Assembly (NCBI RefSeq): GCF_041886205.1
Contig: NZ_CP169029.1
DNA: 64,000 bases
Reading direction: 5' to 3' (one strand)
Origin: Escherichia coli
GTDB lineage: Bacteria; Pseudomonadota; Gammaproteobacteria; Enterobacterales; Enterobacteriaceae
How positions within the stretch are numbered: position 1 is the first letter of the stretch; each line of letters opens with the position of its first letter. A program made the translations under genes and the position numbers. Shown one piece after another: positions 23,473 through 64,000 of this stretch. A model generated the notes under the pieces. That model searched no databases. It had not been told where the DNA came from and was given only the letters and a program-made list of their open reading frames with translations.

Positions 23473-23539
23473 ACAGGCTCCGTAAACACGGGGCAAAATG
23501 CCCCGTGAACACTTAAGAAGGCAGGTATTAAGATAAAAA

Positions 23540-24088: not shown

Positions 24089-24227
24089 AGAATCCTCAGT
24101 GAAACTGATAAGAATATATCATGAAAACAGCAGCAATTAAGAATTTAACTTAATATATTAAGAATAAATTTAATTGCCTATATACAAGATTATCCATAGT
24201 TAAAAAAACTCTCAAAACGTTAAAAAC

Positions 24228-30892: not shown

Positions 30893-30902
30893 GGAACTAT
30901 CC

Positions 30903-36779: not shown

Positions 36780-36784
36780 TTGTT

Positions 36785-37680: not shown

Positions 37681-37683
37681 TAG

Positions 37684-37809
37684 TTGAGAATAACTACCTC
37701 AGCTACGACGAGGCGCATGCTTTTGACAGAGAAATGACGGCCTGTCGTAAAGCGGGTGGAGACTGTGGCGATATTCAGAATAAATATGCTGTATTAAGCG
37801 CAGAGAACC
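37684..37809 (+). pseudogene. remnant duplicate of the 5' end of orphan cdiA-CT 1, closed by a TAG
   Basis: 37684-37806 matches 35656-35778 ([45 protein letters not shown]) then TAG. Confidence 0.7.
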
Positions 37810-39173
37810 GACAGAAATAGGATATTGCCGGGCTCAGCCGGGACCCGGAAAACGCCAACGGCAGCATTGCACCGATATTTGACAGGGAGAAAGAGCAGAA
37901 GCGTCTTCAGGAAGCGCAGGTTATCAGCCAGATTAGCGGTCAGATGAGTAACATCGTCATGACGTATGGCGAAACTGAAGCGATGAAAGCAGCCAGGAAA
38001 GAGCATCCTGGCATGAGCGATGCACAGTTGCGGGAGACTCCGGAATACAGAGAGGTCATGAAAGGCTACGGTACGGGCAGTACGCCGCAGATGGTGGTAC
38101 AGGCCATCACAGGCGTGCTGGGCGGACTGAATGCAGGGAATCCGGGGCAGGTACTGGCTGGCGGTCTGAATCCGGCAGTGGCACAGCTTATAAAACAGGC
38201 CACCGGCGATAACCGGGAAGCAAACCTGATGGCTCACGCAGTCTGGGGAGCGCTTGCCGCACAACTGGGCGGAAACAATGCGGCTTCCGGTGCTGCAGGG
38301 GCATTCAGCGGTGAACTTGCAGCCCGGTATATCATTGATAACTACTACGGTGGTCGTACCGATAACCTGAGTGAACAGGAACGTCAGCAAATCAGCATGC
38401 TGGCCACCATTGCCTCAGGTATTGCGGGCGGGCTTGTCGGCAACAGTACAAGTGCTGCCGGTACGGGGGCACAGGCAGGCAGGAACTCGGTTGAGAATAA
38501 TGCGCTGAGTCTGGTTGCCAGAGGCTGTGCGGTCGCAGCACCTTGCAGGACTAAAGTTGCAGAGCAGTTGCTGGAAATCGGGGCGAAAGCGGGCATGGCC
38601 GGGCTTGCCGGGGCGGCAGTCAAGGATATGGCCGACAGGATGACCTCCGATGAACTGGAGCATCTGATTACCCTGCAAATGATGGGTAATGATGAGATCA
38701 CTACTAAGTATCTCAGTTCGTTGCATGATAAGTACGGTTCCGGGGCTGCCTCGAATCCGAATATCGGTAAAGATCTGACCGATGCGGAAAAAGTAGAACT
38801 GGGCGGTTCCGGCTCAGGAACCGGTACACCACCACCATCGGAAAATGATCCTAAGCAGCAAAATGAAAAACCTGTAGATAAGCTTAATCAGAAGCAAGAA
38901 AGTGCGATTAAGAAGATCGATAACACTATAAAAAATGCTCTGAAAGATCATGATATTATTGGAACTCTCAAGGATATGGATGGTAAGCCAGTTCCTAAAG
39001 AGAATGGAGGATATTGGGATCATATGCAGGAAATGCAAAATACGCTCAGAGGATTAAGAAATCATGCGGATACGTTGAAAAACGTCAACAATCCTGAAGC
39101 TCAGGCTGCGTATGGCAGAGCAACAGATGCTATTAATAAAATAGAATCAGCCTTGAAAGGATATGGAATATGA
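37810..39173 (+). CDS. orphan module 3: pretoxin region, VENN and a distinct C-terminal toxin domain, derived from a different cdiA allele
   Basis: ...[26 protein letters not shown]... parallels the main cdiA pretoxin region (34010-34740); VENN within [14 protein letters not shown] track 37944..39173. Confidence 0.7.
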
Positions 39174-39556
39174 TTACCTTACGTAAATTGATTGGAAACA
39201 TCAATATGACAAAAGAGCCTGAGCAACAATCACAGCTTGAACTCTGGTTCGAACGTATCATAGATGTGCCTCTTGAAAAGTTAACAGTGGAAGATCTTTG
39301 CCGCGCTATCCGACAAAATTTATGTATTGATCAGTTGATGCCAAGAGTGTTGGAAGTTCTAACTAAAGAGCCGTTAGCGGGTGAATATTACGATGGTGAA
39401 CTAATTGCAGCTTTATCAACGATAAAAGGAGAAGATCTAAAAGATCAGAAAAGTACCTTTACCCAAATAAGGCAACTTATAAACCAGCTAGAACCGTCAG
39501 ATATTAACGATGATTTAAGAAAAGATATATTAAAAATCAATCAGATAATTGTATAA
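39170..39556 (+). CDS. orphan cdiI immunity 3 (128 aa, soluble)
   Basis: ATGA overlap with the module 3 stop; product [43 protein letters not shown]... Confidence 0.6.
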
Positions 39557-39588: not shown

Positions 39589-41380
39589 GTGTGCCGGGCA
39601 TGTTCAGCAGCTCGGGGGTGAAAGTCCCCTGTCCAGCCTGATGGTGGCGAAGGACTAGCGAAGCGCAAGGGCGTCGTCGTAAGGCGGGGTCTGAAGGAAG
39701 CGTGAAGCAAATCCATGACCTGACGAACAGAAATCCGATACGAGGCCTACCCGGTTGGCGGAGCAAGCAAAGAATTGCGAAGGCCATAACCATCAAGAAC
39801 CGGGGGGTAAATCGGACAGGTGTGTGGTGAAGGCGTCTGAACTTACCCCGGGAGGCCTGTCCGTCGTTCTGTATCTAGAACTTAGCGTACCGTAAGGGGC
39901 GCTGACCGGCGGACAGGAGTCAGCAGAGGGCATAGTAGGGCATGACACCCGAAGGCCCGAACGGTAATGAGTGACGAGTATCAACGGAGGTTCTGAACGG
40001 TCATGCAGCAGAAAACGCATCGCGCCCCTGAGGCCGGAGAACGGGGTGAAGCCCCGAACGCCGCCCTTCCGGGGGCTGAAACCGTGCAGGCACCGACGAA
40101 CAGAGAAAGTCCGTCGTCAACAGTGTGGCTGATGGAAGCCATTTGTGAACCAGTCAATCTCAGGCAAGCCCTGAAAAGAGTTAAAGCCAACAAAGGTGCA
40201 GCGGGAGTCGATGGTATGCGCGTAAGCGAACTGCCGGACTACCTGAGGCACCACTGGCCAGAGCTGAAAGCGCAACTACTGTCTGGCAGATACCGCCCAT
40301 CTCCTGTGAGAAGAGTGTCCATACCGAAGCCCGGCGGCGGCGAACGTCTGCTGGACATCCCGACGGTGGTGGATCGCTTCATCCAGCAGGCGATGATGCA
40401 GGTATTGCAGGGGCACTGTGGGATAGCTCGTTCAGCGATAACAGCTACGGGTTCCGTCCCGGTCGTTCGGCCCACCAGGCAGTGATACAGGCCCGGGAAC
40501 ATATCGGGGCCGGGTATCACTGGGTGGTCGACCTCGATCTGGAGAAGTTCTTCGACCGGGTAAATCACGATGTGCTGATGAGCCGGATAGAGAAACGAGT
40601 ATCGGATAAACGGGTGTTGTCACTTATCCGCAGGTTCATGAATGCAGGGGTGATGGACGCAGGTCTGGTAAGGCCGGTGACAGAAGGAACGCCGCAGGGC
40701 GGCCCACTGTCGCCGCTGCTATCGAACCTGCTGCTTGACGACCTCGACAAGGAACTGGAGAAACGTGGTCTGAAGTTCGTGCGGTACGCAGACGACTGTA
40801 ATGTCTACGTGAAAAGCGAACGGGCAGACAACCGGATCATGGCGGGGTTGACGCACTGGCTGAGCCATAAACTGAAGCTGAAGGTCAACGCGAAGAAGAG
40901 TGCTGTAGCACGCCCTGAAACGCGCAAGTTCCCTGGATACAGCTTCATAAGGGGGCGGAAGGTATGGTGCGTGGTATCGCCGGAGTCGATAAAACGGTTC
41001 AAAATGCGGATAAGAGCACTGACCGGACGCAACACAGGGAGAAGCCTTGAACAGCTAACCCGGTTGCTAAAACGATATCTGACGGGCTGGAAAAGTTACT
41101 ACGGGCTGAACCAGAGGCCATCGCTGATGCGAGAGCTGAACGGATGGATAAGGCGCAGTCGAGGCGTAAGCAAGGACCTTGCGGCGCAAACAGCAGGAAG
41201 CTGCCATAAAGAGTGGCGGATAAGCTGTAGTCCGGCACTGAATATAGCACTCCCCAATAATCTGTTCTCCAGACTGGGCCTGCCAGAAGTATAGGCAGGC
41301 GACGATCAACATAACCGAACCGCCGTATACGGCCCCATACGTACGGTGGTGTGGGAGGAAGCTGATCGTGAGATCAGCTC
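39589..41380 (+). mobile_element. bacterial group II intron (about 1.8 kb) with a frameshifted intron-encoded protein
   Basis: 5' GTGTG at 39589; internal ORFs encode reverse-transcriptase motifs including the YADD box; a domain V-like hairpin (ACCGCCGTATACGG...ACGTACGGTGGT) lies near 41318-41350; the 3' boundary is approximate (about 20 bp either way). Confidence 0.7.
40003..41294 (+). pseudogene. group II intron reverse transcriptase/maturase split into two ORFs by a frameshift
   Basis: ORF 40003..40485 ends ...QGHCGIARSAITATGSVPVVRPTRQ while the next frame reads SSFSDNSYGFRPGRSAHQAVIQAREHIG... and continues into ORF 40482..41294, which carries ...FVRYADDCNVYV... Confidence 0.75.
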
Positions 41381-46936: not shown

Positions 46937-48906
<1,970 letters not shown>

Positions 48907-48992
48907 TCAAACAGCGGACATTAAAAATGGCGAAACGGTCATAAATCCTGGCGTTGACATCAGTGTCAGATCAAGTCGCGACTAATACACTT

Positions 48993-49024
48993 AATGGCTA
49001 CATACGGCGGTCAGTTTACGCTTA
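48993..49024. repeat. solo copy of the 32-bp IS66-type terminal sequence ATGGCTACATACGGCGGTCAGTTTACGCTTAC
   Basis: Identical to 13959..13990 (the terminus of IS66-family element 1) but flanked by unrelated sequence on both sides. Confidence 0.6.
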
Positions 49025-49317
49025 CGAAAGGACGAACTTTTCTAAGGGCTTTTTTCCTTAAGTGGGGCTTGGATATTCGGAGTGGATTGTATTTAAAACG
49101 AATATCCAAGCAATCAAACTCTAGTCTACAAAACACATAAATTCATGCACGTATCCATCCATGCTGTAGATAATCAGCTGTGATAATAGCAGCCGCTACT
49201 GAAGCAATTGAATGGAAAGCGTCGTCTTTTGTGCGTAACCGGCTCATTTAAACCGTCTGGTCTGTTTCCTCCGGCTCTACAAAAATAATGTCCATCATTT
49301 TTAATGGACACTATCGT

Positions 49318-49536
49318 ATGAAACACCGGACCTGGATCACTGAAGCTTTACGTCTTCACTTTGAAGAACATTTACCCCGGGTTGTGGCCGGGCGTCGCCT
49401 GGGTGTACCAAAATCAACAGTTTGTAGTATGTTCGTGCGCTTTCGGAGAGCTGGCCTTTCGTGGCCTTTGCCCGCAGGCATGTCGGAGCAGGAACTTGAT
49501 GCCTGCCTTTACGGACAATTTTCCACGGTACCAGTC
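49318..49536 (+). pseudogene. possible N-terminal fragment of an IS21-family IstA-like HTH, read in frame with the next tnpA
   Basis: MKHRTWITEALRLHFEEHLPRVVAGRRLGVPKSTVCSMFVRFRRAGLSWPLPAGMSEQELDACL resembles IS21-family IstA N-termini; it lies inside ORF 49288..49965. Confidence 0.35.
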
Positions 49537-49572
49537 GTACGTCCTGAAAGCACCGTTATATCCGAAGCCCCC

Positions 49573-49965
49573 GTGGTAAAAAAACGTCCCCGGCGGCCCA
49601 ACTTCCCTTATGAGTTTAAAATCGCCTTAGTGGAGCAGTCACTGCAGCCCGGAGCCTGTGTGGCGCAGATCGCCCGGGAAAACGGAATCAACGATAACCT
49701 GCTCTTCAACTGGCGCCATCAATACCGGAAAGGTGGCCTGCTGCCTTCCGGAAAAAATATGCCGGCACTGCTTCCCGTGACGTTAACGCCGGAGCCGGAT
49801 AATAAAATCCCGGCCCCCGCACAGGAACCAGAGCAGATAAATACACCGTCCGACAGTCTGTGTTGTGAGCTGGTTCTGCCGGCCGGAACTCTCAGGCTTA
49901 AAGGTAAACTGACGCCGGCGTTATTACAGACACTTATCCGCGAAATAAAAGGGAGCAGCCACTGA
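49573..49965 (+). CDS. tnpA: IS66-family TnpA (GTG start assumed)
   Basis: ...KKRPRRPNFPYEFKIALVEQSLQPGACVAQIARENGINDNLLFNWRHQY...; in-frame GTG at 49573. Confidence 0.65.
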   Translation: MVKKRPRRPNFPYEFKIALVEQSLQPGACVAQIARENGINDNLLFNWRHQYRKGGLLPSGKNMPALLPVTLTPEPDNKIPAPAQEPEQINTPSDSLCCELVLPAGTLRLKGKLTPALLQTLIREIKGSSH

Positions 49966-50312
49966 TGATATCTCTCCCTGCAGGTTCGCGTATCTGGCTG
50001 GTTGCAGGTATCACCGATATGCGAAATGGCTTTAACGGCCTGGCATCAAAAGTTCAGAACGTCCTGAAGGATGACCCGTTCTCCGGACACCTGTTCATCT
50101 TCCGCGGACGCCGGGGTGACCAGATAAAAGTGTTGTGGGCTGACAGTGACGGACTGTGCCTCTTCACCAAACGCCTGGAGCGGGGCCGCTTCGTCTGGCC
50201 AGTCACCCGTGACGGCAAGGTGCACCTTACTCCGGCTCAGTTATCCATGCTTCTTGAAGGTATCAACTGGAAGCACCCGAAACGAACGGAACGCGCTGGA
50301 ATCCGCATATAA
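49965..50312 (+). CDS. tnpB: IS66-family TnpB
   Basis: 115 aa, [31 protein letters not shown]... Confidence 0.85.
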   Translation: MISLPAGSRIWLVAGITDMRNGFNGLASKVQNVLKDDPFSGHLFIFRGRRGDQIKVLWADSDGLCLFTKRLERGRFVWPVTRDGKVHLTPAQLSMLLEGINWKHPKRTERAGIRI

Positions 50313-50331
50313 CCCGTTGTAAAGTGAGGAT

Positions 50332-51903
50332 ATGGACACCTCACTTGCTCATGAGAACGCCCGCCTGCGGGCACTGTTGCAGACGCAACAGGACACCATC
50401 CGCCAGATGGCTGAATACAACCGCCTGCTCTCACAGCGGGTGGCGGCTTATGCTTCCGAAATCAACCGGCTGAAGGCGCTGGTTGCGAAACTGCAACGTA
50501 TGCAGTTCGGTAAAAGCTCAGAAAAACTTCGTGCAAAAACCGAACGGCAGATACAGGAAGCACAGGAGCGAATCAGCGCACTTCAGGAAGAAATGGCGGA
50601 AACGCTGGGTGAGCAATATGACCCGGTACTGCCATCCGCCCTGCGCCAGTCTTCAGCCCGTAAACCGTTACCGGCCTCACTTCCCCGTGAAACCCGGGTT
50701 ATCCGGCCGGAAGAGGAATGCTGTCCTGCCTGTGGTGGTGAACTCAGTTCTCTGGGATGTGATGTGTCAGAGCAACTGGAGCTTATCAGCAGCGCCTTTA
50801 AGGTTATCGAAACACAACGTCCGAAACAGGCCTGTTGCCGGTGCGACCATATCGTGCAGGCACCAGTACCTTCAAAACCCATTGCACGCAGTTATGCCGG
50901 AGCGGGGCTTCTGGCCCATGTTGTCACCGGGAAATATGCAGACCATCTGCCGTTATACCGCCAGTCAGAAATATACCGTCGTCAGGGAGTGGAGCTGAGC
51001 CGTGCCACACTGGGGCGCTGGACAGGTGCTGTTGCTGAACTGCTGGAGCCGCTGTATGACGTCCTGCGCCAGTATGTGCTGATGCCCGGTAAAGTCCATG
51101 CTGATGATATCCCCGTCCCGGTCCAGGAGCCGGGCAGCGGTAAAACCCGGACAGCCCGGCTGTGGGTCTACGTCCGTGATGACCGTAACGCCGGTTCACA
51201 GATGCCCCCGGCGGTCTGGTTCGCGTACAGTCCGGACCGGAAAGGTATCCATCCACAAAATCACCTGGCCGGTTACAGCGGTGTGCTTCAGGCCGATGCT
51301 TACGGTGGTTACCGGGCGTTATACGAATCCGGCAGAATAACGGAAGCCGCGTGTATGGCTCATGCCCGGAGAAAAATCCACGATGTGCATGCAAGAGCGT
51401 CCACCTACATCACCACGGAAGCCCTGCAGCGTATCGGTGAACTGTATGCCATCGAGGCAGAGGTCCGGGGCTGTTCAGCAGAACAGCGTCTGGCGGCAAG
51501 AAAAGCCAGAGCCGCGCCACTGATGCAGTCACTGTATGACTGGATACAGCAACAGATGAAAACACTGTCGCGTCACTCAGATACGGCAAAAGCGTTCGCA
51601 TACCTGCTGAAACAGTGGGATGCACTGAACGTGTACTGCAGTAATGGCTGGGTGGAAATCGACAACAACATCGCAGAGAACGCCTTACGGGGAGTGGCCG
51701 TAGGCCGGAAAAACTGGATGTTCGCGGGTTCCGACAGCGGTGGTGAACATGCGGCGGTGTTGTACTCGCTGATCGGCACATGCCGTCTGAACAATGTGGA
51801 GCCAGAAAAGTGGCTGCGTTACGTCATTGAACATATCCAGGACTGGCCGGCAAACCGGGTACGCGATCTGTTGCCCTGGAAAGTTGATCTGAGCTCTCAG
51901 TAA
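50332..51903 (+). CDS. tnpC: IS66-family TnpC transposase (523 aa)
   Basis: Full length with CPACGGEL motif and conserved C-terminal ...[28 protein letters not shown]... Confidence 0.85.
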
Positions 51904-51906
51904 ATA

Positions 51907-53367
51907 TCAATACGGTTCTGACGAGTCGCTTACTTTTGTGCTGTCGCCAAAATCACTAATCCCTCTCACAATAAGCGCTGGAACTCCCTGCTTTTCGCAG
52001 GCATCAAATACCCCATAGGCTTCCATTTCGGCAACACAGGCTTTGTCATGAAGCGACCTGAAACGTTCTAGTAAAGCAGGATCGCGGATAAGAAGCTCTC
52101 CTGATGCGATAGTGGCTGAAGAAACAATTATCCCAGCAGCTACGTCTCCAGCCTGCGAATTTTCAGGCATTTCGAGTCCTATAGCCTGTGCCCGTTCGCC
52201 AAGACGTGCGGATAGTGACGTTGTTGCAAGGTAAGTATTGAGGTTTTGTTTAGTTGGCATATGGAGACATAATATTTCAGGTCGAGGAGCAAACTTCCCA
52301 CCTTCTAATGCGGCTGCACTTTCATAATAAATGACACGCTCAGAAATAATGACTTCACCTAGCACCATTTTTTCTCTCAACCCCGCCGCAATCCCCATCA
52401 TCAAGACTTTTTGGGGTTTGAATTCCGACAACAACATGGTAGTAATAGCTGAAGCATTCACATTTCCAGCACTAGCGAAAGACGCCACTATGCCAGTTAC
52501 TGGGCCATCTGAGCGTTGTATGGATGTGGACCAGAAATGTATTCCATTTGATGTGAGCCGCGGAGATTCATCATCAGCTATGCCAAATACTTTCTTGGCT
52601 GCAGCAAGTTCAACTGGTAGAGCTGTCAAAATCAACACATTTGGAGTATGCAGCAACTGTTGTGCAGCCCATTCAGCTTTAAGCAATTCAACTGCGATTT
52701 CTGAAAGTCGTTCCAGTCCATAGTAAGGTTCCTGTAACGATAAAGTGTCGAGCTGATTTTTTACGGCTTCACCGGTGCAAGGGAACATAGACAGCGGCTC
52801 TGCATAAAAACGTGCATGTAGGCCTAAAGCACCTTTTCCGTCATCGCAAATTCCCCCAAGCTCCAAGTCAAACGGTAATATGGGGTGGTTGGCTTTACGC
52901 ATTTTACTCGCACGATCGGAAACGCCTTTTCCTCCACCTAATGCAATCATGGCTGTGGCAGCATCAACCTGCTCGCTTCCAATATTTCCTCCAGTAATGA
53001 GATCATCATCTAGATAGCTGACATCAGCAAATCTAGCTGCCTGAAGTTTACGAATAAGCATCCGATTCTCTTCAGACATTTTCTCCCGCATTGCAGAACG
53101 CGACGTGACGATCTTGAGTTGGTGGGCTGGCGTATAATTCTCCATTAAATCTACAGCTTCTTTTACTATCGTCCAGTCGAAGGTCAGGAGATCCCCATTT
53201 TCATTAACAGGTTCTCCTGCCAAATAGACAACTAGTCCCACATTTGCATCAAGGATGCTCTTCGTCAATGCTCGAACGAAACTATGTGCTCGATCAATAT
53301 AAAGTTTTTCTGTATTTTTGGATATACTTCCAGCGATCAGAACATACTCATTATTAGTATTTGTCAT
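51907..53367 (-). CDS. two-domain defence-effector candidate: N-terminal Rossmann-like putative ligand-sensing domain (SLOG-like?) fused to a C-terminal nucleoside-phosphorylase (PNP/MTA-nucleosidase) domain; the 3' end is replaced by IS66 terminal sequence
   Basis: ORF 51907..53382, ATG at 53367. C-terminal half ...KVLMMGIAAGL...GEVIISERVIYYES...CVAEMEAYGVFDACEKQGVPALIVRGISDFGDSTK is phosphorylase-like; N-terminal half has ...YVLIAGSIS...VGLVVYLAG...IALGGGKGV... The last 8 codons (VSDSSEPY) are read from the reverse complement of the IS66-5 terminal repeat. Confidence 0.6.
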   Translation of the reverse strand: MTNTNNEYVLIAGSISKNTEKLYIDRAHSFVRALTKSILDANVGLVVYLAGEPVNENGDLLTFDWTIVKEAVDLMENYTPAHQLKIVTSRSAMREKMSEENRMLIRKLQAARFADVSYLDDDLITGGNIGSEQVDAATAMIALGGGKGVSDRASKMRKANHPILPFDLELGGICDDGKGALGLHARFYAEPLSMFPCTGEAVKNQLDTLSLQEPYYGLERLSEIAVELLKAEWAAQQLLHTPNVLILTALPVELAAAKKVFGIADDESPRLTSNGIHFWSTSIQRSDGPVTGIVASFASAGNVNASAITTMLLSEFKPQKVLMMGIAAGLREKMVLGEVIISERVIYYESAAALEGGKFAPRPEILCLHMPTKQNLNTYLATTSLSARLGERAQAIGLEMPENSQAGDVAAGIIVSSATIASGELLIRDPALLERFRSLHDKACVAEMEAYGVFDACEKQGVPALIVRGISDFGDSTKVSDSSEPY

Positions 53368-54296: not shown

Positions 54297-54395
54297 CTTA
54301 GTTCCCGGTAGCGTATAAAAAATATCTCAATATAAAAAGTAGACGCAGAATAAAAACTGAACGTATAATAATGCTACGCTATAGGGCGGTAAGGT

Positions 54396-54433
54396 GCAAC
54401 CATCACCTCAGTCACTTCTGAGGTGATGGTTGC
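54396..54433. promoter_or_regulatory. perfect 16-bp inverted repeat with 6-bp spacer (GCAACCATCACCTCAG-TCACTT-CTGAGGTGATGGTTGC); candidate operator in the divergent promoter region
   Basis: Lies between the WYL gene start (54296) and the nucleotidyltransferase start (54466), 32 bp upstream of the latter. Confidence 0.5.
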
Positions 54434-54465
54434 AGTTTTCATGAATGATCTTCGGAAGGATGTGA

Positions 54466-55410
54466 ATGCCACTCACTAATACTCAGATCCGATACTACGA
54501 CAGCAATGTACTGCGTTTGCCTAAGGATAAGCGTGAAACCTACAATGCCCAAGTAGATCGGCTTATTACAGCGTTACGTAAAAAACTGAAAGATCAGGAT
54601 AAAATAACAATAAAACGTGTCGTTAAAGCTGGTTCGTTTGCTAAACACACTATTCTACGCAAAACCTCAGACAGTCAGGTCGATGTGGATGTTGTGTTTT
54701 ACGTTAGTGGAGAGAAAGTTGCTGAGGAAACCTTCGCAAGCCTGAGCGAAAAAATTTACGAAGCCTTACTTAAAATGTATCCCAACAAAGCTGTAGAAGA
54801 TTTCGAGATTCAACGTAAGGCTGCTACTGTTTCTTTTGTCGGGACTGGATTAGATGTTGATATTGTTCCCGTCATCGAAAATCCGGACAAAGAAGGCTAT
54901 GGATGGCAGTTTGACCGTATCGATGGTTCGAAGACAGAGACTTGTGCTCCTTGCCAGATCAAATTTGTGAAAGATCGCAAAGACCAAGACCCGGACTTTC
55001 GTACTTTAGTACGCTTAGCTAAACGTTGGCGTACCAACATGGAATGCCCACTTAAGTCATTTCATATAGAACTAATCATGGCTCATGTACTAGAAGTCAA
55101 TGGAAAAGATGGTTCGTTGGAGAAGCGATTTCGGGATTTTCTACTGTACATTGCTGAATCAGGATTAAAAGAAGTTATCACCTTCCCTGAAAATAGCACT
55201 ATACCAGCATTTTCCCATCCAGTTGTCATACTGGATCCTGTTTGCGATACGAACAACGTTACCAGCCGTATTACCGAGGATGAGCGAAAAGAGATCGTCC
55301 GGATTGCTGAGGAAAGTTGGGCGACGGCAAATTTTGCGTCGGTAGAAGGAGACTATGATATCTGGAAGGAGCTGTTTGGTCGTTCATTTAAAGTGGAGGA
55401 TACAGCATGA
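54466..55410 (+). CDS. cGAS/DncV-like nucleotidyltransferase (CBASS CD-NTase), 314 aa
   Basis: GGAAGGA RBS; nucleotidyltransferase signature ...VKAGSFAKHTILRKTSDSQVDVDVVFYV... (GS motif and acidic DVD); first gene of a four-to-five-gene operon. Confidence 0.7.
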   Translation: MPLTNTQIRYYDSNVLRLPKDKRETYNAQVDRLITALRKKLKDQDKITIKRVVKAGSFAKHTILRKTSDSQVDVDVVFYVSGEKVAEETFASLSEKIYEALLKMYPNKAVEDFEIQRKAATVSFVGTGLDVDIVPVIENPDKEGYGWQFDRIDGSKTETCAPCQIKFVKDRKDQDPDFRTLVRLAKRWRTNMECPLKSFHIELIMAHVLEVNGKDGSLEKRFRDFLLYIAESGLKEVITFPENSTIPAFSHPVVILDPVCDTNNVTSRITEDERKEIVRIAEESWATANFASVEGDYDIWKELFGRSFKVEDTA

Positions 55411-55895
55411 GTTACTCCTCAACTGAAACATCGACTTATACCACAACAGACGTTGAAGCAGTCATGCGACGCATCACAGCTGACTTAGTGATGATTGCCG
55501 CCAGTACCGGTGCGATAACTGAATCAAAAGCACGTGAGTATGCTCACGATATAGAACTCTTAGCAAAAAATGGATATCTGGATTACGTCGATGTGACCCT
55601 TATAAGCAATGGCGTTGAACAGAAAGCAACCCGGTTTCATGTGAATGAGTCCGGAGAATTGGCAAATGACAGACCTGGAGACGCTCGTTGGCCGAGAATT
55701 CAGGGGGCTTATCTGCGGATTGTTGTGAACAACCGGAGTACCTACGATCAGGCTGCGAGGCAAAAGCTTTCAGGTAAGATGAAAATATCGTGGTCGCCAT
55801 GTAGTGATGACATCAGTCATTCAGGTTTGACCCAAAGTGGTGGTCGTGAATATTCCAGCAATGGTTATGGTATGCAACGTAAGGATTACAATTAA
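55407..55895 (+). CDS. small CBASS accessory protein, HORMA-like by position (162 aa)
   Basis: ATGA overlap with the nucleotidyltransferase gene; size and position between CD-NTase and AAA+ ATPase match Cap7-type HORMA proteins; no motif can be verified by eye. Confidence 0.45.
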   Translation: MSYSSTETSTYTTTDVEAVMRRITADLVMIAASTGAITESKAREYAHDIELLAKNGYLDYVDVTLISNGVEQKATRFHVNESGELANDRPGDARWPRIQGAYLRIVVNNRSTYDQAARQKLSGKMKISWSPCSDDISHSGLTQSGGREYSSNGYGMQRKDYN

Positions 55896-56791
55896 TGAGC
55901 AAGAGTAGTGTTTTCGACTCAGTGATTGATTTACCGCAGCGCGAACTGACAGAGCGAGAGAACATTTTACTTGGCTTTGAAAGTCGTTATGAGAGTGTCC
56001 ACAACCAACTCAACCTGCTGCTTAACCAAGGGCAACTCCTTGACTGGAGCAAGAAGTACCATAAGAGCGTTTTACCGCTCTGCAAGCTCGTTGCTGAGCA
56101 GTATCCGCTTGTTATTTTTCATGGTGATGTAGGAACAGGTAAAACAGCAACTGCTGAGTGCATCGCGAATCGTCTTGTCCGCGAGTCTCGCACTGAAGAT
56201 TCGGCCCTCTTTAAGCTCAGCAATCGGGTCCGTGGTTCCGGAAAAGTGGGGGAGATGGGGACGCTACTAACTCAGGCATGGGCAGAAGTGTGCGAGGCTG
56301 CGGGTAAAAATCGCAGAGCAATACTGATTATTGATGAAGGGGATTCAATTGCAGCTTCCCGTTCTCAAAACCACAGCCATCATGAAGATAAAGTAGCAGT
56401 AAATACTTTAATTCAAGGAGTGGATGAGCTACGAAAATTTGGCGGCCGGGTTGTGGTAATTTTATGTACTAATAGACTATCCGTCCTTGACCCTGCACTT
56501 CGTAGGCGAGCAGCGATTGTCGAAGAATTTACTCGCCCCGGGCTCACAGAACGAGAATCGCTTTTTCGCATGGATCTTGGAGGGATGGGATTGTCAGATA
56601 GTCAATATCGTCAACTAGCGGTGGCAACTGGTGAGAAAGAAAATCTGCCAGCATGGACATACTCTGATATCCGTACGCGCCTCTATCCCGCAGCAATGTC
56701 AAGAGCGTTTCCTGAACGGGCTTTAAGTTTTAATGATTTGATGGAATTATTGAAAATAATGAGGCCTTCCCCCGTCATGGGAGATATATAA
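55895..56791 (+). CDS. AAA+ ATPase, TRIP13/Pch2-like (Cap6-like), 298 aa
   Basis: Walker A GDVGTGKTATAECIANRL, Walker B ILIIDEGD; start overlaps the preceding stop. Confidence 0.6.
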   Translation: MSKSSVFDSVIDLPQRELTERENILLGFESRYESVHNQLNLLLNQGQLLDWSKKYHKSVLPLCKLVAEQYPLVIFHGDVGTGKTATAECIANRLVRESRTEDSALFKLSNRVRGSGKVGEMGTLLTQAWAEVCEAAGKNRRAILIIDEGDSIAASRSQNHSHHEDKVAVNTLIQGVDELRKFGGRVVVILCTNRLSVLDPALRRRAAIVEEFTRPGLTERESLFRMDLGGMGLSDSQYRQLAVATGEKENLPAWTYSDIRTRLYPAAMSRAFPERALSFNDLMELLKIMRPSPVMGDI

Positions 56792-56887
56792 GGCCCCATT
56801 TCTTAATCAACTGATATACTATAAAAATCAACTCCAATTCCGGTACATTTGTTGATTTACGGTGCACTTCTTGCAAGCAGGAACTAT

Positions 56888-57451
56888 ATGAGAACTGATA
56901 AAGAAATTTTCGTTTCAGTTGATGTGGAAACATCAGGCCCTATTCCGGGGAAATACAGTATGTTATCGATAGGTGCTTGTGTGGCATTTGAACCATCAAA
57001 GCAATTTTCATGTTACCTTAAACCGATATCTGAAGATTTTATCCCTGCGGCTATGGAAGTGACTGGGTTATCGCTGGAGAAGTTGCACGTCGATGGTTTG
57101 GATCCTGTTGATGCAATGGTTCAATTTAAAGAATGGATTAATTCGGTCGTAAAGGAAGATGAGACTGTAGTTTTTGTTGGTTTCAATGCTTCATTTGACT
57201 GGAGCTTTATTAATTATTATTTCCATGTATATTTAGGTGATAATCCTTTTGGCATCGCAGCACTCGATATAAAATCAATGTATTTTGGCGTTTCTCACGC
57301 CTCATGGAGATTAACACGTTCTAGTGAAATAGCGAAAGTTGTCAAACCTGAGACATATGGTGATCATGATGCATTACATGATGCCCGATATCAGGCTGAA
57401 CTATTCCGGTTGATCGATAAATTGAGCGAGAAGAAAAAATTAGATCGATGA
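56888..57451 (+). CDS. DEDD-family 3'-5' exonuclease (DnaQ-like; CBASS Cap18-like accessory)
   Basis: Exo motifs [10 protein letters not shown] (DxE) and ...[10 protein letters not shown]...; ATG at 56888 with GCAGGA RBS (ORF track start 56849 is a TTG). Confidence 0.6.
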
Positions 57452-57538
57452 GTTGCGCAAATAATCATATGGAATTTTCAAAGATTAATTTACTGGAAGT
57501 ACAGTGAATTACCTTATGACAAGAGTTCTGGTGGATAT

Positions 57539-57994
57539 ATGAATGACGAATTTAGCTGTGCAAGTGAGCATATCTGGAAATATTTCGAATTGCATGCACA
57601 ACAAAGAATGACTGTTTTCAATTTTTACATTGCGATAACAGGACTTCTTGCTGCTGGCATTGGGGTTACTCTCCAACAAGGAGGGAAGTATGTATTATTT
57701 ACTTCACTTATGGGGGTGTTTGTAGCATTTATTTCATTTATTTTCTGGAAATTGGATCAGCGAGTGTCGATTTTAATAAAAAATGCTGAAATTGCTCTAC
57801 AAGATCTTGAATGTCAATTTTCCAATGAAAAGCTGAGGATAATCACTAAAGATAATAGCAGTCATTTGCTAAACTTAGGCATTAGTTCTTCTTGGACTTA
57901 TGGAAAATGCTTCCGCATTTCATTTGTTATAGTAGGTCTTACTGGGATATTACTTGCGATTACACCTTTTCTGATGAAAGTCTCGACTTCTTAA
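57539..57994 (+). CDS. small multi-pass membrane protein (151 aa); candidate membrane-disrupting effector
   Basis: Three hydrophobic helices (VFNFYIAITGLLAAGIGVTL, YVLFTSLMGVFVAFISFIFW, ISFVIVGLTGILLAITPFL); last gene of the operon; its stop directly abuts an IS2-like end. Confidence 0.5.
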   Translation: MNDEFSCASEHIWKYFELHAQQRMTVFNFYIAITGLLAAGIGVTLQQGGKYVLFTSLMGVFVAFISFIFWKLDQRVSILIKNAEIALQDLECQFSNEKLRIITKDNSSHLLNLGISSSWTYGKCFRISFVIVGLTGILLAITPFLMKVSTS

Positions 57995-59330
57995 TACATT
58001 TGAGCCGGCCCCTTGAAACGCCAGACAGTGGATGTATCTTAAAATAAGAGATAGGCTTGGATATATGTCTAACACTAGTTCTAATTTTGAGATGACAGGA
58101 ACTTTGCTGGGGCAGGGGCTTCGTAAACGTAAAACTCCTCAGGAAAAAATTGACATTATTCAGCAGACAATGGAGCCTGGCATGACGGTGTCCCATGTGG
58201 CGCGTTTGCACAGTATTCAGCCCGGCCTGTTATTTAAGTGGAAAAAACAATATCTGGAAGGAAGTCTCACTGCTGTTGCTGCCGGAGAGGATGTTGTTCC
58301 TGCCTCAGAACTGGCTGCCGCTATAAAACAAATAAAAGAGTTACAGCGCTTTCTGGGTAAAAAACCATGGAAGTTGAGATCCTCAAAGAAGCAGTGGAGT
58401 ATGGTCAGTCGTAAAAATGGATAGCGCATGCGCCCTTGTTGCCAACGGACAAGGAATAACCATGGTAATCCGTATTCTGGACGTGTCGCGTGCGTAACTG
58501 GCACAACGGATGAAAATATCTGGTAATAAGCCGGATAAACGTCGTCGCAGATGTGATGAGGCTGCGGATGCGGAAGTGTTAGCACGCATCCTTGATATCA
58601 TCAGCGATATGCCGACATATGGCTATCGTCGTGTCCGGGCTATTCTCAGACGGCAGTCTTAACGAAGGACTGCAGTTCGTGAATGCAAATCGCGTTTATC
58701 GAATAATGAGCGAGAATAACCTGTTGTTATTACATGACAAACCTTCACGACCGCAGAGGGAACATAAAGGCCCGAATATCGGTGAAGGAAAGCGACCCGC
58801 GCTGGTGTGCCGATGGCTTTGAGTTCGGTTGTGATGATGACGAAAAACTGCGTGTCACGTTCGCACTGGACTGTTGCGATCTTGAATCCATAGACTGGGC
58901 CGCAAGCACGGGAGGTTATGGCAAAGCAACGGTGCAGGATGTCATGTCAGGAGCGATAGAAAAACGCTTTGGCGATAGACCGGGATGGCCCATCCAGTGG
59001 CTGACCGATAACGGTTCAGCTTATACAACTCATGAAACACGGCAGTTCGCCAGAGAGTTGAATCTGGAGCTCTGCACGACGGCAGTCAGTAGCCCTCAGA
59101 GTAATGGAATGAGAGAACGGTTCGTGAAAACGATGAAGAGCGATTACATCAGTATCATACCTAAACCGGACGTGTTAACGGCAGTAAAAAACCTTGCGGA
59201 GGCGTTCGAACACTATAACGAATAGCATCCTCATGGTGCCTTGGTTATCTCTCACCGAGGGAATATCAACGTCACTCGGTAACGTTAACTTAAGCTCAAC
59301 GGCTGTCTGGATATAGTGGTTCAAGGGCAC
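57995..59330 (+). mobile_element. degenerate IS2-like (IS3-family) element with fragmented orfA/orfB
   Basis: Left end resembles the IS2 left inverted repeat; orfA-like ORF 58032..58424 (...[78 protein letters not shown]...) and an orfB fragment 58734..59225 lacking the N-terminus. Confidence 0.7.
58734..59225 (+). pseudogene. IS2-like OrfB (InsD-like) transposase fragment
   Basis: ...[27 protein letters not shown]...[47 protein letters not shown]... matches the C-terminal two-thirds of InsD. Confidence 0.75.
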
Positions 59331-59692
59331 CTAAGGGCCTTATTTACGGTGTTTTCGCTGATTGGTTTACGCGGGTCATGTGCTCCCGTAAAGACCAGAC
59401 CATTTTCAACTGCCCATGTCTGAAGTTTTATCAGTATGGCTACAGCCTGTTTGCTGAGTGGCACAAGATGTGGTGTTCGCATCTTATGGATTCACCATTA
59501 TAGTGACATGTTCAAGATGATGATATATCTTTGAAAAGTGTTCTCTTTGCGAACGGTATAGAATTTCTAGCGTTACTTTTCATAATTACACTTTTTAGGG
59601 TTAGGCAGGCACAATCTATGCGCTGTCTTAGATAACTACATCCATTTTTACTGGACTACCACCAACAAAAATTTAGTGGTGCAGGAGAAAAC

Positions 59693-62600
59693 GTGAAGTA
59701 TCAGATAGTAGGTGGTGCTGGCCTGCACCGCAGCGAAACCAAAACAGTTGATATGATGGTTAAGCAGTTACCAGATAGTTGGTTTGGCTATGCTGGCTTA
59801 GTTGTTACTGATAGCCAAGGGTCGATGGAAATCGATATGCTAATTATTACTGCTGACCGTCTGCTATTAGTCGAGCTTAAAGAGTGGAATGGTAACATCA
59901 CATTTGAAGGGGGGAAGTGGCTGCAAAATGGTAAGTCACGAGGCAAAAGTCCCTATCAGATCAAGCGTGAGCATGCACTGCGACTAAAAGATTTGTTGCA
60001 GGAAGAGTTATCTCGTAAGCTGGGTTACTTTTTGCATGTTGAGGCTCATGTAGTGCTGTGTGGCACAGCTGGTCCTGAAAACTTGCCATTAAGTGAGAGG
60101 CGCTATGTTCATACCCGTGATGAATTCTTGACTATAGGTAACCCAAAAAATTACGAAAAGCTGGTGCAACACACTAACTTTTTTCATCTTTTTGAAGGGG
60201 GAAAGCCTCGACCAAATTCTGATGAGGCATTACCTATAATTAAGTCCTTCTTTGAAGGACCAAAAGTCAGGCCTTTGCCACTAAAAGAAAGCGGTTATCT
60301 TGCGAACGATAAGCCATTCTTTAGTCACCCTCACATGGTCTACAACGAATTCAGGGCTACCCACAAAGACAATAGTCAACACAGAGGTCTGCTACGGCAG
60401 TGGAACTTTGATGCCTTGGGTGTAGCAAACGCAATGCAAACATTGTGGGCTGAGATAGCTCTGCGTGAGACTCGAGTCGGTCGCCTAGTTCGTCATGGCA
60501 GCGCAACTATGCAGGATTATATGTTGCGTGCTGTAAGGGAACTATCCGAGGAGGATATAACTGATGATGCCCGTGAGCTGTATGAGTTACGCCGTAGTTT
60601 TAGCCGATTAGATGAGATTCTAGATAGCGAAGCTGACGGATGGAGTAAATCTGAGCGTATTGATCGCGTTCGTGCATTATTAGCTCCATTCTCGGAATTA
60701 CATAGCTTGGGTATCAGTCATTGTGATATTGACCCGCACAATCTATGGTACGCAGGGGATCAGAAGAGCATTGTCGTTACTGGCTTTGGCGCAGCCTCAC
60801 TGGAGGGACATAATAGCCTAGAGTCATTGCGTCCGATATTGCAAAGTGCTCCATATATTTTGCCCGAAGATGCTTTTGAAGAAGCAGTTGAGCCCTATCG
60901 CCTAGATGTATTCATGTTGGCTGTAATTGCTTATCGTATTTGTTTTGCAGGTGAATCATTACTGACTCCTGGACAGATGCCTGAATGGAGAGCTCCATTA
61001 ACTGATCCTTTTAGCGGTATTCTAAATAGCTGGTTTGAGCAAGCTCTTAACCTTGAGCCAAGTAAACGCTTTCCACGTGCGGACATAATGCTCAATGAGT
61101 TTAATGCAGCTACTAAGGAACATAGCCAAGAATTTGATGAAGCTAACCAGATTTATCAAGAATTAAAGCAAAACAAATTCTTTCGCGAAGGGATGAACAG
61201 CGTTGGTGTGTTAATTGAGTTTCCTCCACTTCCTGAACAGTTGTCTATGGTTTACTCTGCTCTTGCTGCTATTGCTACGACTGGCAGCATCAGTTATCAC
61301 TGTGAACAAGGTGGGAAAGCTCTGCAGGTAAAATTGTGGGATGGTGTTATTTTGACCCCTCAACAACCTGGTGTTAACCGCCGTATCCACGCTTTTAAGC
61401 AACGGATCGATAAGCTTACGCATATAAATCTGCCAACTCCTAAGGTGCAGTCCTATGGACTATTAGGACAAGGCGGCTTGTATGTAGTGAGCGAGTATGT
61501 GGATGGCCTACCGTGGTCACAGTTTATTGCTGAGAACGTGTTAGTACAATCCCAACGTTTTACAATTGCGGAAAAGTTGATCAACACCATTCATGCTTTT
61601 CATGAAAAGCAGTTACCTCATGGAGATCTTTGCCCAGAGAAACTGCTGGTACAAGTCGGGGAGCAGACAGTAATTACTCTGATTGGATTGCTTGAATTCA
61701 GTGATGAATTAACTGCAGATAATCGCTACCAGCCAGAGAATCCCGAAAGTACTGATGCTTTTGGGCGAGATTGCTTTGCAGTATATCGTATGGTGGAGGA
61801 GCTATTTAGTGAAGATATGCCAGTACTGGTGCAGGCTGAGCTAGAACGCGCAAAACAAACCGTTGACGGTATACCTATCGCGCTCGATCCTTTGCTGCAG
61901 TCAATTCGAGCACCGGAACAAGCTGAGATTAATCAAGTTGTGGCGTCTGAGTCACAGGATAAGGTAATTCCTGTTTGCTGGGGCACAGATGATTGGCCGC
62001 AAGAAGTGAAGCTTCTAGAACAAAATGATGGGATCTATTATTTTCAATGTAACTGGTCATCGAACCCACGCTTTGCGCATGAATTGCGTTGTTACATCAC
62101 TGGCCTAGGAGAGCGGCTATTGATAGACTTAGATCCTGATAATCGCACTATTAATAGAATAGTGTATGAAAAAGGATTATCGATCGAAGAAAGTATAAAG
62201 GCTGGTAAATATTCCCAGGCTAAAATTAATACTCAACTTTCATTACAACGTGGCTCACTTAATCAGCGTAATACTTTTATTGAACTACTGTTTAACCTCG
62301 AGCCAGTAATTGATGCCATCATTGAGCGAGCTAATCCTAATCAAGAGATGGATGAAGATGACTTCGATAGTAGTGAGTCAAGCCCAATTGAGTTATGGCA
62401 GGCATTATCTGATACAGAAGTAGACCTACGAGATATAGTCAACATCGACTCTACTGACTTTCAGGAATCACCGAGTGGTTGCTTACTCTACCCATATACT
62501 ACGGAATCCGGTGCTGACCTCAGCTTTGAACTTGATGATAAGATCATTGTTTATATTAAAGATAAGCGTGAATCAGTGCAATTAGGGGAATTGCAGCTAA

Positions 62601-64000
62601 GTGAGACTACGCCGAGTCTATTGGCTATTCGCTTTGATTTTGATGCTGCTCGTAAGCGAATTAGTAGCGGCAGCCAGCTACAATTGGAATCGATCCGTGA
62701 CAAATCATCAAGAGAGTTGCGTCAAAGAGCCCTTCAACGGGTAATTGAAAACAAAGCAGAGATCCAGCATCTGCCACAGTATTTTGATTACCACCAGAAA
62801 CCCTGCATGCAGCAAATGCAACCGCGGCCATCCGCGGAGACATTACGCGCACTTTATGATCAGCCTGGACAACGTTTTAATGAACAGCAGCTAATGGCAT
62901 TTCAACAGTTGGTCGAGTTTGGACCAGTTGGAGTTCTGCAGGGACCACCTGGAACAGGTAAAACAACATTTATTTCAAAATTTATTCACTATCTGTATCA
63001 ACATTGCGGTGTGAATAACATTCTTTTGGTCGGGCAATCCCATGCCTCTGTTGATAATGTAGCCATCAAGGCTCGAGAGCTCTGCCATACGAAAGGAATG
63101 GAACTGGATACAGTACGTATTGGTAATGAACTTATGATTGATGAGGGTATGCTAAGTGTTGCAACTAAAGCTCTTCAGCGACAGATTCAGCATAAATTTC
63201 ACCGTGAATATGATCTGCGAGTTAGCTCCCTAGGAAAGCGCCTAGGGATGGCCCCATTATTAGTCCAACAGTTATGTCAGTTACATCGTACGCTGAATCC
63301 CTTGATGGTGACATATGGCCAATATAGCCGTGAGCTGGATAAAGTAGAACAAATAAAGAGTAGTAGTATTAGTCATCAAGAGCGACTGGCTGAATTATTA
63401 GAACAAAGCAATCAGCTTAAACTGCGAACACAAGAAATTATTAACTCAATATTCGATGACAGCTTGCTGAAAACTCTTGTCTATGATGAAACCTTGATAA
63501 GACAGTTGGCTGAGCAAGTTGCCATACAATACAATTATAACAATCCAGAGAACCTTGAACGTTTTATGCAGCTATTGGAAATGAGCCAAGAGTGGATGGA
63601 TGTATTACGCGGCGGCGAGGCTGGATTTGATCGATTTATGTTCAAAAGTAAGCGATTGGTTTGTGGAACTCTTGTTGGTGTTGGGAATCGTCGACTAGAA
63701 CTAGCTGAGTCCAGCTTTGATTGGGTAATAGTTGATGAGGCTGGCCGAGCACAAGCTGCTGAATTGATGGTAGCGCTGCAATCAGGCAAGCGGGTGCTGT
63801 TGGTAGGGGATCATAAACAATTGCCACCATTCTATCATCAACAGCATCTTAAGTTAGCCTCTAAGAAATTAGAACTCGGGAAAGGGATCTTTTATGAGTC
63901 TGATTTTGAACGTGCTTTTAAAGCAACAGGCGGCGTAACACTCGATACTCAATATCGAATGGTAGAACCAATTGGCGAGTTAGTATCGGAGTGCTTTTAC
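59693..64000 (+). CDS. giant multidomain protein (>1,435 aa, continues past the window): N-terminal NERD nuclease-like domain, two protein-kinase-like domains, and a C-terminal superfamily-1 (Upf1/DNA2-like) helicase; defence-system candidate
   Basis: GTG at 59693 after AGGAGA RBS; frame verified stop-free at sampled stretches (59882-59940, 60062-60360, 60662-60780, 61502-61620, 61862-61980, 62162-62250, 62921-62970). NERD-like VKYQIVGGAGLHRS...EIDMLIITADRLLLVELKEWNG; kinase catalytic-loop-like LHSLGISHCDIDPHNLW and VTGFGAAS; helicase motifs GPPGTGKT, VIVDEAGRA, LVGDHKQLPP. Not in the ORF track because there is no stop in the window. Confidence 0.7.
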   Translation, partial: MKYQIVGGAGLHRSETKTVDMMVKQLPDSWFGYAGLVVTDSQGSMEIDMLIITADRLLLVELKEWNGNITFEGGKWLQNGKSRGKSPYQIKREHALRLKDLLQEELSRKLGYFLHVEAHVVLCGTAGPENLPLSERRYVHTRDEFLTIGNPKNYEKLVQHTNFFHLFEGGKPRPNSDEALPIIKSFFEGPKVRPLPLKESGYLANDKPFFSHPHMVYNEFRATHKDNSQHRGLLRQWNFDALGVANAMQTLWAEIALRETRVGRLVRHGSATMQDYMLRAVRELSEEDITDDARELYELRRSFSRLDEILDSEADGWSKSERIDRVRALLAPFSELHSLGISHCDIDPHNLWYAGDQKSIVVTGFGAASLEGHNSLESLRPILQSAPYILPEDAFEEAVEPYRLDVFMLAVIAYRICFAGESLLTPGQMPEWRAPLTDPFSGILNSWFEQALNLEPSKRFPRADIMLNEFNAATKEHSQEFDEANQIYQELKQNKFFREGMNSVGVLIEFPPLPEQLSMVYSALAAIATTGSISYHCEQGGKALQVKLWDGVILTPQQPGVNRRIHAFKQRIDKLTHINLPTPKVQSYGLLGQGGLYVVSEYVDGLPWSQFIAENVLVQSQRFTIAEKLINTIHAFHEKQLPHGDLCPEKLLVQVGEQTVITLIGLLEFSDELTADNRYQPENPESTDAFGRDCFAVYRMVEELFSEDMPVLVQAELERAKQTVDGIPIALDPLLQSIRAPEQAEINQVVASESQDKVIPVCWGTDDWPQEVKLLEQNDGIYYFQCNWSSNPRFAHELRCYITGLGERLLIDLDPDNRTINRIVYEKGLSIEESIKAGKYSQAKINTQLSLQRGSLNQRNTFIELLFNLEPVIDAIIERANPNQEMDEDDFDSSESSPIELWQALSDTEVDLRDIVNIDSTDFQESPSGCLLYPYTTESGADLSFELDDKIIVYIKDKRESVQLGELQLSETTPSLLAIRFDFDAARKRISSGSQLQLESIRDKSSRELRQRALQRVIENKAEIQHLPQYFDYHQKPCMQQMQPRPSAETLRALYDQPGQRFNEQQLMAFQQLVEFGPVGVLQGPPGTGKTTFISKFIHYLYQHCGVNNILLVGQSHASVDNVAIKARELCHTKGMELDTVRIGNELMIDEGMLSVATKALQRQIQHKFHREYDLRVSSLGKRLGMAPLLVQQLCQLHRTLNPLMVTYGQYSRELDKVEQIKSSSISHQERLAELLEQSNQLKLRTQEIINSIFDDSLLKTLVYDETLIRQLAEQVAIQYNYNNPENLERFMQLLEMSQEWMDVLRGGEAGFDRFMFKSKRLVCGTLVGVGNRRLELAESSFDWVIVDEAGRAQAAELMVALQSGKRVLLVGDHKQLPPFYHQQHLKLASKKLELGKGIFYESDFERAFKATGGVTLDTQYRMVEPIGELVSECFY

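Follow-up and report, generated by a model that had tools for sequence, protein, structure and literature searches.

A 64,000-nt stretch of Escherichia coli DNA (contig NZ_CP169029.1), referred to below as the window, harbours a seven-gene Type III cyclic oligonucleotide-based antiphage signalling system (CBASS); all coordinates are positions in this window. The locus is very likely the CapW-regulated Type III CBASS initially reported from E. coli upec-117, with its effector gene disrupted by an insertion sequence (IS) and the system probably non-functional. A preliminary description of the region, made from the DNA letters, had regarded the gene combination as unusual. This view does not hold, as the same seven-gene system has already been published as the upec-117 CBASS; the combination is known, published and genetically tested.

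The locus was compared by megablast with 5,426 complete E. coli genomes, five of which carry it. Strain ZYB39 matches with a DNA identity of 100% (rounded), and four further records, CP054230.1 among them, match with 99.3% (over 6.4 kb). Coordinates and accessions given in the upec-117 paper agree with the matched record. On the protein level, the window differs from the upec-117 type by 0–5 substitutions per protein: none in Cap18, one each in CapW and Cap7, and three each in CdnC, Cap6 and Cap19. The upec-117 gene names Cap17, CapW, CdnC, Cap7, Cap6, Cap18 and Cap19 were coined by Blankenchip et al. (PMC9122588), who named Cap17 as a nucleoside phosphorylase resembling methylthioadenosine/S-adenosylhomocysteine (MTA/SAH) enzymes and Cap19 as a protein with three transmembrane (TM) segments. 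Crystal structures are available for Cap18 itself (7T2S) and for homologues of CapW. Since the CBASS is already in print with named genes, a genetic dissection and some solved structures, the discovery value of the locus is small.

Truncation of the effector Cap17

The preliminary description had named two possible effectors, the membrane protein encoded in cis and a phosphorylase fusion encoded in trans. Protection against lambda cI− needs CdnC catalysis, for which D73N/D75N was tested, and it is strongly reduced by a stop codon in cap19; the D165N exchange in Cap18 has no effect on it (PMC9122588). The D472N exchange in Cap17 abolishes the defence against lambda (PMC9122588). The Cap17 protein of E. 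coli KTE188 is an ATP/dATP nucleosidase that lowers ATP in infected cells and aborts the infection; D472A abolishes both ATP depletion and defence, and binding of the nucleotide signal is predicted for the N-terminal PF18178 domain (bioRxiv 10.1101/2023.01.24.525353). The effector is Cap17. Cap19 is needed but insufficient, because the single exchange D472N or D472A in Cap17 abolishes defence with Cap19 intact. The published genetics therefore settle the question of a membrane effector in cis or a phosphorylase in trans, and of the two candidates only the phosphorylase fusion stands as the effector. Its gene is present as had been noted; the designation "in trans" is not appropriate, since cap17 and capW on the minus strand form one divergent unit with the CBASS core genes. 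The interruption of cap17 by an IS66-family element had been overlooked.

Intact Cap17 consists of 505 amino acids (aa) in ZYB39 and in the upec-117 type. In the window, native residues 1–478 (51934–53367) are followed by eight IS-encoded residues, VSDSSEPY, and a stop codon at 51907–51909. The last 27 residues (479–505) are replaced by these eight foreign ones, and their native codons now lie 2.7 kb away. The truncated protein matches the PADLOC PN-superfamily effector profile (2.7e-245) over positions 1–478 of 506. The clusters of Cap17 homologues carry PF18178 (TPALS) and PF01048 (PNP_UDP_1), and the TPALS domain together with a nucleoside phosphorylase (PNP) domain bearing the catalytic Asp, which characterize Cap17, are found in the window as well. 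The catalytic D472 is kept (...GISDFGDSTK), the complete C-terminus is not. Among the 120 homologues listed, nearly all of those with both Cap17 domains are about 500–530 aa long.

The significance of the lost segment was assessed in an alignment of 12 PNP domains of Cap17 and of the Detocs protein DtcC; the two groups share only 20–24% identity. All 12 domains have K478, after which comes a conserved DDxxHxYAxxSA motif. The intact PNP domain as modelled by AlphaFold2 (AF2; pLDDT 88.5, pTM 0.89) contains a 22-residue terminal helix with high local confidence at domain residues 242–263, which correspond to residues 480–501 of the protein. The lost segment also aligns with the C-terminal part of MTA/SAH nucleosidases right after the catalytic Asp. 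Because the PNP domain loses this motif along with the helix at its end, sequence and model together make it likely that the Cap17 effector, and hence the CBASS, is inactive in this strain; the other six genes are intact.

Several points weigh against this conclusion. The retention of Asp472 and of the invariant K478 makes a residual activity of Cap17 possible. In the literature searched, neither the cyclic nucleotide product of the upec-117-type CdnC nor a definition of the roles of Cap18 and Cap19 was found. The CBASS could still be functional here if the truncated Cap17 were active enough, for which the two retained residues speak, or if Cap19, a SLATT/8xMP-like protein, were a second, independent effector. 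The latter would agree with the requirement of Cap19 for defence (PMC9122588) and with the label "SMODS and SLOG-associating 2TM effector domain" that some Cap19 relatives bear in UniRef. We regard a functional system as unlikely: D472N or D472A in Cap17 alone abolishes defence despite an intact Cap19, and the lost part comprises a conserved motif and a confidently modelled helix at the end of the fold.

The probable inactivation of Cap17 is placed at the end of the following proposed pathway. CapW would repress the bidirectional promoter until binding of single-stranded DNA (ssDNA) releases the promoter. Cap7, the HORMA protein, would activate CdnC to produce a cyclic oligonucleotide, and Cap6, the TRIP13 homologue, would reset Cap7, as suggested for both steps by the MS115-1 member of the family. 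The cyclic oligonucleotide, presumably the signal, would bind to the TPALS domain of Cap17, which would then deplete ATP, with abortion of the infection as the result. The IS66 insertion after codon 478 of cap17 would deprive the PNP fold of its last helix and of the conserved motif and so leave the effector, and hence the system, inactive. An abortive-infection effector would thus have been knocked out naturally by an IS while the sensor and regulator genes stayed intact, which would make the locus a clean example of the silencing of a costly defence. It also calls for caution in genome-based defence inventories, as the gene-content call "cbass_type_III" would hide the truncated effector.

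The IS66-family insertion in cap17

The inserted element contains the genes tnpA (49288–49965), tnpB (49965–50312) and tnpC (50332–51903). Their products match the NCBIfam equivalog models IS66_access_TnpA (1.1e-88), IS66_TnpB (5.2e-38) and transpos_IS66 (1.8e-143), all above cut-off. The terminal inverted repeats read GTAACCGGCTC... and ...GAGTCGCTTAC, with the consensus GTAA(C/G)CG(G/A)CTC, and the 8-bp target duplication TTTTGTGC is present in a left copy at 49227–49234 and a right copy at 51934–51941. The tnpA-tnpB-tnpC set, the inverted repeats and the 8-bp duplication place the element in the IS66 family, and an ISCro1 copy at another site in ZYB39 shares 98.6% identity with it. The ZYB39 sequence beyond codon 478 of cap17 is found again at 48826–49234 of the window with 100% identity, and the flanks of the element rejoin exactly into an intact cap17. 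The IS66–cap17 junction was found by megablast in none of the 5,426 complete E. coli genomes. Judged by these sequence features, the insertion is a genuine strain-specific transposition.

An assembly artefact, that is a chimeric join at a repeat, would be in line with the IS-rich nature of the region and with the absence of the junction from every complete E. coli genome of the collection. This explanation is highly improbable. Both junctions lie within the window, the 2,699-bp element is complete, has inverted ends and is bordered by a precise 8-bp direct repeat, and its flanks restore cap17 exactly. Together these features are the signature of transposition, not of misassembly.

At 37791–37798 the window has an empty site with a single copy of an 8-bp target, where ZYB39 carries its ISCro1 copy. 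Otherwise the two sequences are 99.98–100% identical over about 57 kb. This difference amid near-identity therefore points to recent activity of IS66-family elements.

Signalling core and Cap18

The five plus-strand open reading frames (ORFs) of the preliminary description are present (ORF list and translations). Its proposal of a Type III CBASS, consisting of a cGAS/DncV-like nucleotidyltransferase (CD-NTase), a HORMA protein and a TRIP13-like ATPase with overlapping start and stop codons, is confirmed by PADLOC, NCBIfam and Pfam profiles. The suggested PADLOC run returned Cyclase, HORMA, TRIP13, Exonuclease, PN-superfamily and WYL matches.

CdnC matches the PADLOC Cyclase profile (6.9e-124), the NCBIfam model CBASS_cyclase_a (344.8 bits, curated cut-off 200) and Pfam SMODS (7.3e-12). 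The closest solved chain is CdnC of E. coli MS115-1 (PDB 6P80, 1.5e-37). The catalytic residues G56-S57, D73 and D75 (GS...DxD core) are present in the translation, so that the absence of the acidic residues, considered beforehand as a possible refutation, does not apply; D73 and D75 are the positions altered in the published catalytically dead mutant (PMC9122588). Cap7 covers model positions 1–169 of 169 of Pfam bacHORMA_1 (7.5e-55) and matches PADLOC HORMA (7.5e-81). A phmmer search of Cap7 against PDB sequences gave no match; the HORMA protein is too diverged, and profile methods are needed. Cap6 matches PADLOC TRIP13 (5.7e-125), the TRIP13 chain of MS115-1 (PDB 6P8V, 5e-54) and Rhizobiales Pch2 (1.8e-48), with Walker A GDVGTGKT and Walker B LIIDEGD readable in the sequence. 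The start codon of cap7 overlaps the stop codon of cdnC in a 4-nt ATGA, and the start of cap6 overlaps the end of cap7 by 1 nt. A minimal nucleotidyltransferase toxin–antitoxin pair made up of the nucleotidyltransferase and the 162-aa protein, with an unrelated ATPase, deserves practically no credence, as the three proteins give high-scoring, full-length matches to the profiles for CBASS cyclase, bacHORMA_1 and TRIP13, solved structures of CdnC and TRIP13 from MS115-1 are also matched, and nothing was found in its favour.

Cap18 is identical to WP_001258365.1 and matches the PADLOC CBASS Exonuclease profile (2.4e-90) and, across residues 1–187, PDB 7T2S (5.2e-126). Its annotated start is the ATG at 56888 (187 aa); the TTG-started ORF from 56849 (200 aa) is an over-extension. 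Together with the AF2 model of Cap19 and the CapW match, these results bear out the DEDD exonuclease and the three-helix membrane protein proposed to lie divergent from a WYL regulator. The CD-NTase, HORMA and TRIP13 components of a Type III CBASS are each present and the intact effector is not. The locus is a member of the Type III CBASS by descent, but probably a disabled copy. The features are listed in Table 1.

Table 1. Genes and other features of the CBASS locus, in order of window position.
Feature	Position	Strand	Evidence
Detached 3′ end of cap17: codons 479–505, stop and left copy of the 8-bp target duplication	49143..49234	-	100% match to ZYB39 L001 5918-6009
IS66-family (ISCro1-like) element, 2,699 bp	49235..51933	+	NCBIfam TnpA/TnpB/TnpC matches, 8-bp flanking repeats
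Truncated cap17, TPALS-PNP ATP-nucleosidase effector	51907..53367	-	PADLOC profile; comparison with intact 505-aa proteins
capW, winged helix-turn-helix (wHTH)-WYL-WCX transcriptional repressor, 299 aa	53397..54296	-	WP_001534693.1, PDB 7TB5, PADLOC WYL
Bidirectional promoter region	54340..54380	+	Promoter scan, alignment of published CapW operator
Perfect 17-bp hairpin with 6-nt loop, then GTTTTC; 5′ untranslated region (UTR) of cdnC	54395..54434	+	Folding versus shuffles
cdnC, CD-NTase, 314 aa	54466..55410	+	PADLOC, NCBIfam, Pfam SMODS, PDB 6P80
cap7, bacterial HORMA protein, 162 aa	55407..55895	+	Pfam bacHORMA_1, PADLOC HORMA
cap6, TRIP13-like AAA+ ATPase, 298 aa	55895..56791	+	PADLOC TRIP13, PDB 6P8V
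cap18, DEDDh 3′-5′ exonuclease, 187 aa	56888..57451	+	WP_001258365.1, PDB 7T2S, PADLOC Exonuclease
cap19, three-TM membrane protein, 151 aa, weak match to Pfam 8xMP (PF24838)	57539..57994	+	Pfam, hydrophobic segments, AF2
Degenerate IS3-family transposase remnant bounding the CBASS	58092..59293	+	RefSeq annotation "frameshifted; internal stop"

CapW, promoter and 5′ UTR

CapW is known as a dimeric repressor of a bidirectional promoter that is freed by the binding of ssDNA to its WYL domain (PMC9122588, PMC11662680). The protein of the window differs from the characterised WP_001534693.1 by one substitution. It matches PDB 7TB5 (5.7e-130), with 7TB6 and 9C5G also matched, and PADLOC WYL (1.7e-19). 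The features of a CapW are all found: wHTH, WYL and WCX domains, divergent orientation to the CBASS core and an operator over the −10 element. The best promoter-like site of the region in the promoter scan is TAGACG, an 18-nt spacer and TATAAT at 54340–54369 (10 of 12 matches). The published 30-bp CapW operator (probe from PMC11662680) aligns at 54351–54380 with one mismatch and overlaps the TATAAT. The mismatch is position 54361, which is A in the window and ZYB39 and T in the published probe, the upec-117 type, Hafnia and Budvicia. On inspection of the sequence, the position looks non-symmetric within an imperfect palindrome, and the exchange probably has a small effect.

Position 54396, at which the preliminary description had let the operon begin, falls into a hairpin of the 5′ UTR and is not a gene start. 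The hairpin sits between the CapW-controlled promoter and the start of cdnC and is more stable than shuffled sequences (z = −5.5). In Hafnia and Budvicia the 5′ arm GGTGCAACCATCACCTCA is unchanged, but the 3′ arm has diverged; in Budvicia, the conserved 5′ arm is predicted to pair with the region of the ribosome binding site instead. A conserved RNA element was considered and rejected, as the Hafnia and Budvicia sequences fold no better than shuffles. The hairpin may be an attenuator or an element of translational control. A word search of the two CapW papers (PMC9122588, PMC11662680) found no mention of it.

Cap19 homologues and ATP-nucleosidase effectors

The match of Cap19 itself to Pfam 8xMP (PF24838) is weak (independent E-value 5e-4, 20.3 bits), and most of its close homologues carry a precomputed PF24838 match. 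Its hydrophobic segments lie at residues 24–42, 49–67 and 122–140, and the AF2 model consists of three long helices. The Cap19 profile detected coiled-coil noise only among PDB sequences, and the model gave nothing better than an E-value of about 1 in a Foldseek search of the PDB. The names of the homologues P0025, P0059 and P0102 vary among "RipA family octameric membrane protein" (NCBI/UniRef) and [quoted passage not shown] (UniRef). Cap19 and three homologues bearing the RipA name matched no NCBIfam model, and nothing relevant on RipA, 8xMP, Cap19 or Detocs was found in the literature searched. The source of the RipA/octamer label could not be traced through NCBIfam, the PDB or this literature.

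The neighbourhoods of Cap19 homologues were surveyed in 16 taxa, the window included. In 12 of the 16 loci, with Cap19 homologues of at least 48% identity, every cluster contains a Cap17-clade PNP effector. Four of them (E. coli, Hafnia, Budvicia and Pseudomonas mandelii) are Type III CBASS of the Cap17 type. The other eight are Detocs-like loci; they encode a kinase of the Y4jQ type, a receiver protein and a receiver-PNP protein, but neither CD-NTase nor Cap18. P. wadenswilerensis and P. kribbensis each have a cap19 homologue overlapping dtcC; in Pantoea ananatis and Superficieibacter the homologue immediately precedes dtcA. The P. wadenswilerensis locus (L011) encodes at 10678–12651 a further, 657-aa protein with a Cap17-clade PNP domain (1.1e-71), convergent to the Detocs operon that ends in the Cap19 homologue; this island thus holds two PNP effectors.

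The remaining four of the 16 loci have no PNP effector nearby, and two of them lie at contig edges. The Salmonella copy among these, at a contig edge, is about 60% identical to Cap19, and the other three are 35–48% identical. No ORF with a PNP domain was found in the loci of the three distant relatives (L013, L014 and L016), and the Luteimonas locus with a Cap19 relative has neither PADLOC matches nor a PNP effector. Gemmobacter tilapiae (L016, 10001–11604) has a distant Cap19/8xMP homologue (43% identity) with a Type II methyltransferase-like gene before it and a gene that matches PADLOC "TGT" (3.9e-74) after it. Other defence systems may be served by the more distant members of 8xMP.

Cap19 is not a universal partner of Cap17. 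This idea was rejected, as Cap17-CdnC-HORMA-TRIP13-Cap18 occurs without Cap19 in Burkholderia, in P. syringae and on an Achromobacter-like contig. Two distant Cap17 homologues adjoin a different nucleotidyltransferase, without Cap18 and Cap19. Cap18 tracks the Type III Cap17 CBASS (seven of seven loci). In a neighbour-joining tree, the Cap19 proteins group by host clade and not by system type: the Cap19 of the P. mandelii CBASS is 73% identical to a Detocs-linked Pseudomonas copy and 51% identical to that of E. coli.

As a lead, Cap19 can be seen as an optional component found almost exclusively in ATP-nucleosidase systems, be they CBASS or Detocs. We give about even chances to the proposal that Cap19-type 8xMP proteins are a portable accessory of immune ATP-nucleosidase (PNP) effectors and not of CBASS signalling. 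No statement of such a link was found in the literature searched, although it may be published elsewhere, and the text of the Rousset preprint (bioRxiv 10.1101/2023.01.24.525353) contains no mention of a Cap19-like partner. The co-occurrence of Cap19 with PNP effectors and the published requirement for Cap19 suggest that it acts downstream of, or together with, ATP depletion. It could, for example, be a membrane pore or an executor that couples the loss of ATP to growth arrest or lysis. The link between Cap19 and PNP effectors gives a starting point for testing why defence depends on Cap19.

Downstream boundary and surroundings

The preliminary description had noted an IS remnant at the distal end of the operon and had suspected that further genes were lost. 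The remnant is real and belongs to a degenerate IS3-family transposase; together with an integrase fragment it follows cap19 in all five complete genomes carrying the CBASS. The loss of distal genes was rejected. The published functional upec-117 construct ends at the same point as the system of the window, after cap19 (PMC9122588). Hafnia, Budvicia and P. mandelii have the same gene content as the window, except that P. mandelii lacks CapW, and no flanking ORF common to these three loci was found beyond cap17 or cap19.

The IS3 remnant (58092–59293) and the tyrosine integrase fragment (59330–59485) separate the CBASS from a large ORF at 59693–64000, which runs off the end of the window. This ORF matches PADLOC MkoA with 1056 bits and shows kinase-like (PglW/MAD6) and superfamily 1 (SF1) helicase regions; in ZYB39 it encodes 1,652 aa and is annotated as "AAA domain-containing protein". 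It appears to be a defence gene of the Mokosh type lying directly downstream of the CBASS, and the region is therefore a defence island. A tRNA scan of the 64-kb window found none.

Upstream of the CBASS lie many IS66, IS21, IS481 and IS256 copies. Two adjacent ORFs of 160 aa and 270 aa at 40003–41294 together make up a group II intron reverse transcriptase/maturase that is split in two (the second half matches NCBIfam TIGR04416 with 1.9e-70). They represent a fragment and not a retron or DRT defence gene. According to the ZYB39 annotation, the regions at about 19100–24100 and 26057–39556 contain an F17 fimbrial operon, a frameshifted CdiA-like hemagglutinin-repeat gene, a VENN pre-toxin fragment and cdiI.

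Comparison with known systems

The closest relative of the locus is the upec-117 Type III CBASS (CP054230.1, 69873–76528; PMC9122588, PMC11662680), with which it shares all seven genes, their order and orientation, the promoter and operator and the downstream IS3 remnant. The window differs from it in the interruption of cap17 by the IS66-family element after codon 478 and in one changed base of the CapW operator probe region (54361). In E. coli KTE188, the Type III CBASS is of the same kind. Its Cap17 (bioRxiv 10.1101/2023.01.24.525353) has 505 aa, the TPALS domain (PF18178), a PNP domain at 239–505 and D472, as in the intact allele, whereas the Cap17 of the window lacks residues 479–505; the likeness to KTE188 rests on this architecture.

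[quoted passage not shown] The effectors differ: the nuclease NucC in MS115-1 and the ATP nucleosidase Cap17 in the window. None of the matched MS115-1 entries (6P80, 6P8V and 6U7B) concerns a CapW, Cap18 or Cap19 protein. Detocs (DtcA kinase, DtcB and the receiver-PNP protein DtcC; Rousset et al. 2023) signals by two-component phosphotransfer and not by a cyclic oligonucleotide, and it has no CD-NTase, HORMA, TRIP13 or Cap18 component. It shares with the window an ATP-nucleosidase effector of the Cap17 PNP clade and, in the eight Detocs-like loci, a Cap19 homologue of 48–57% identity inside or beside the operon.

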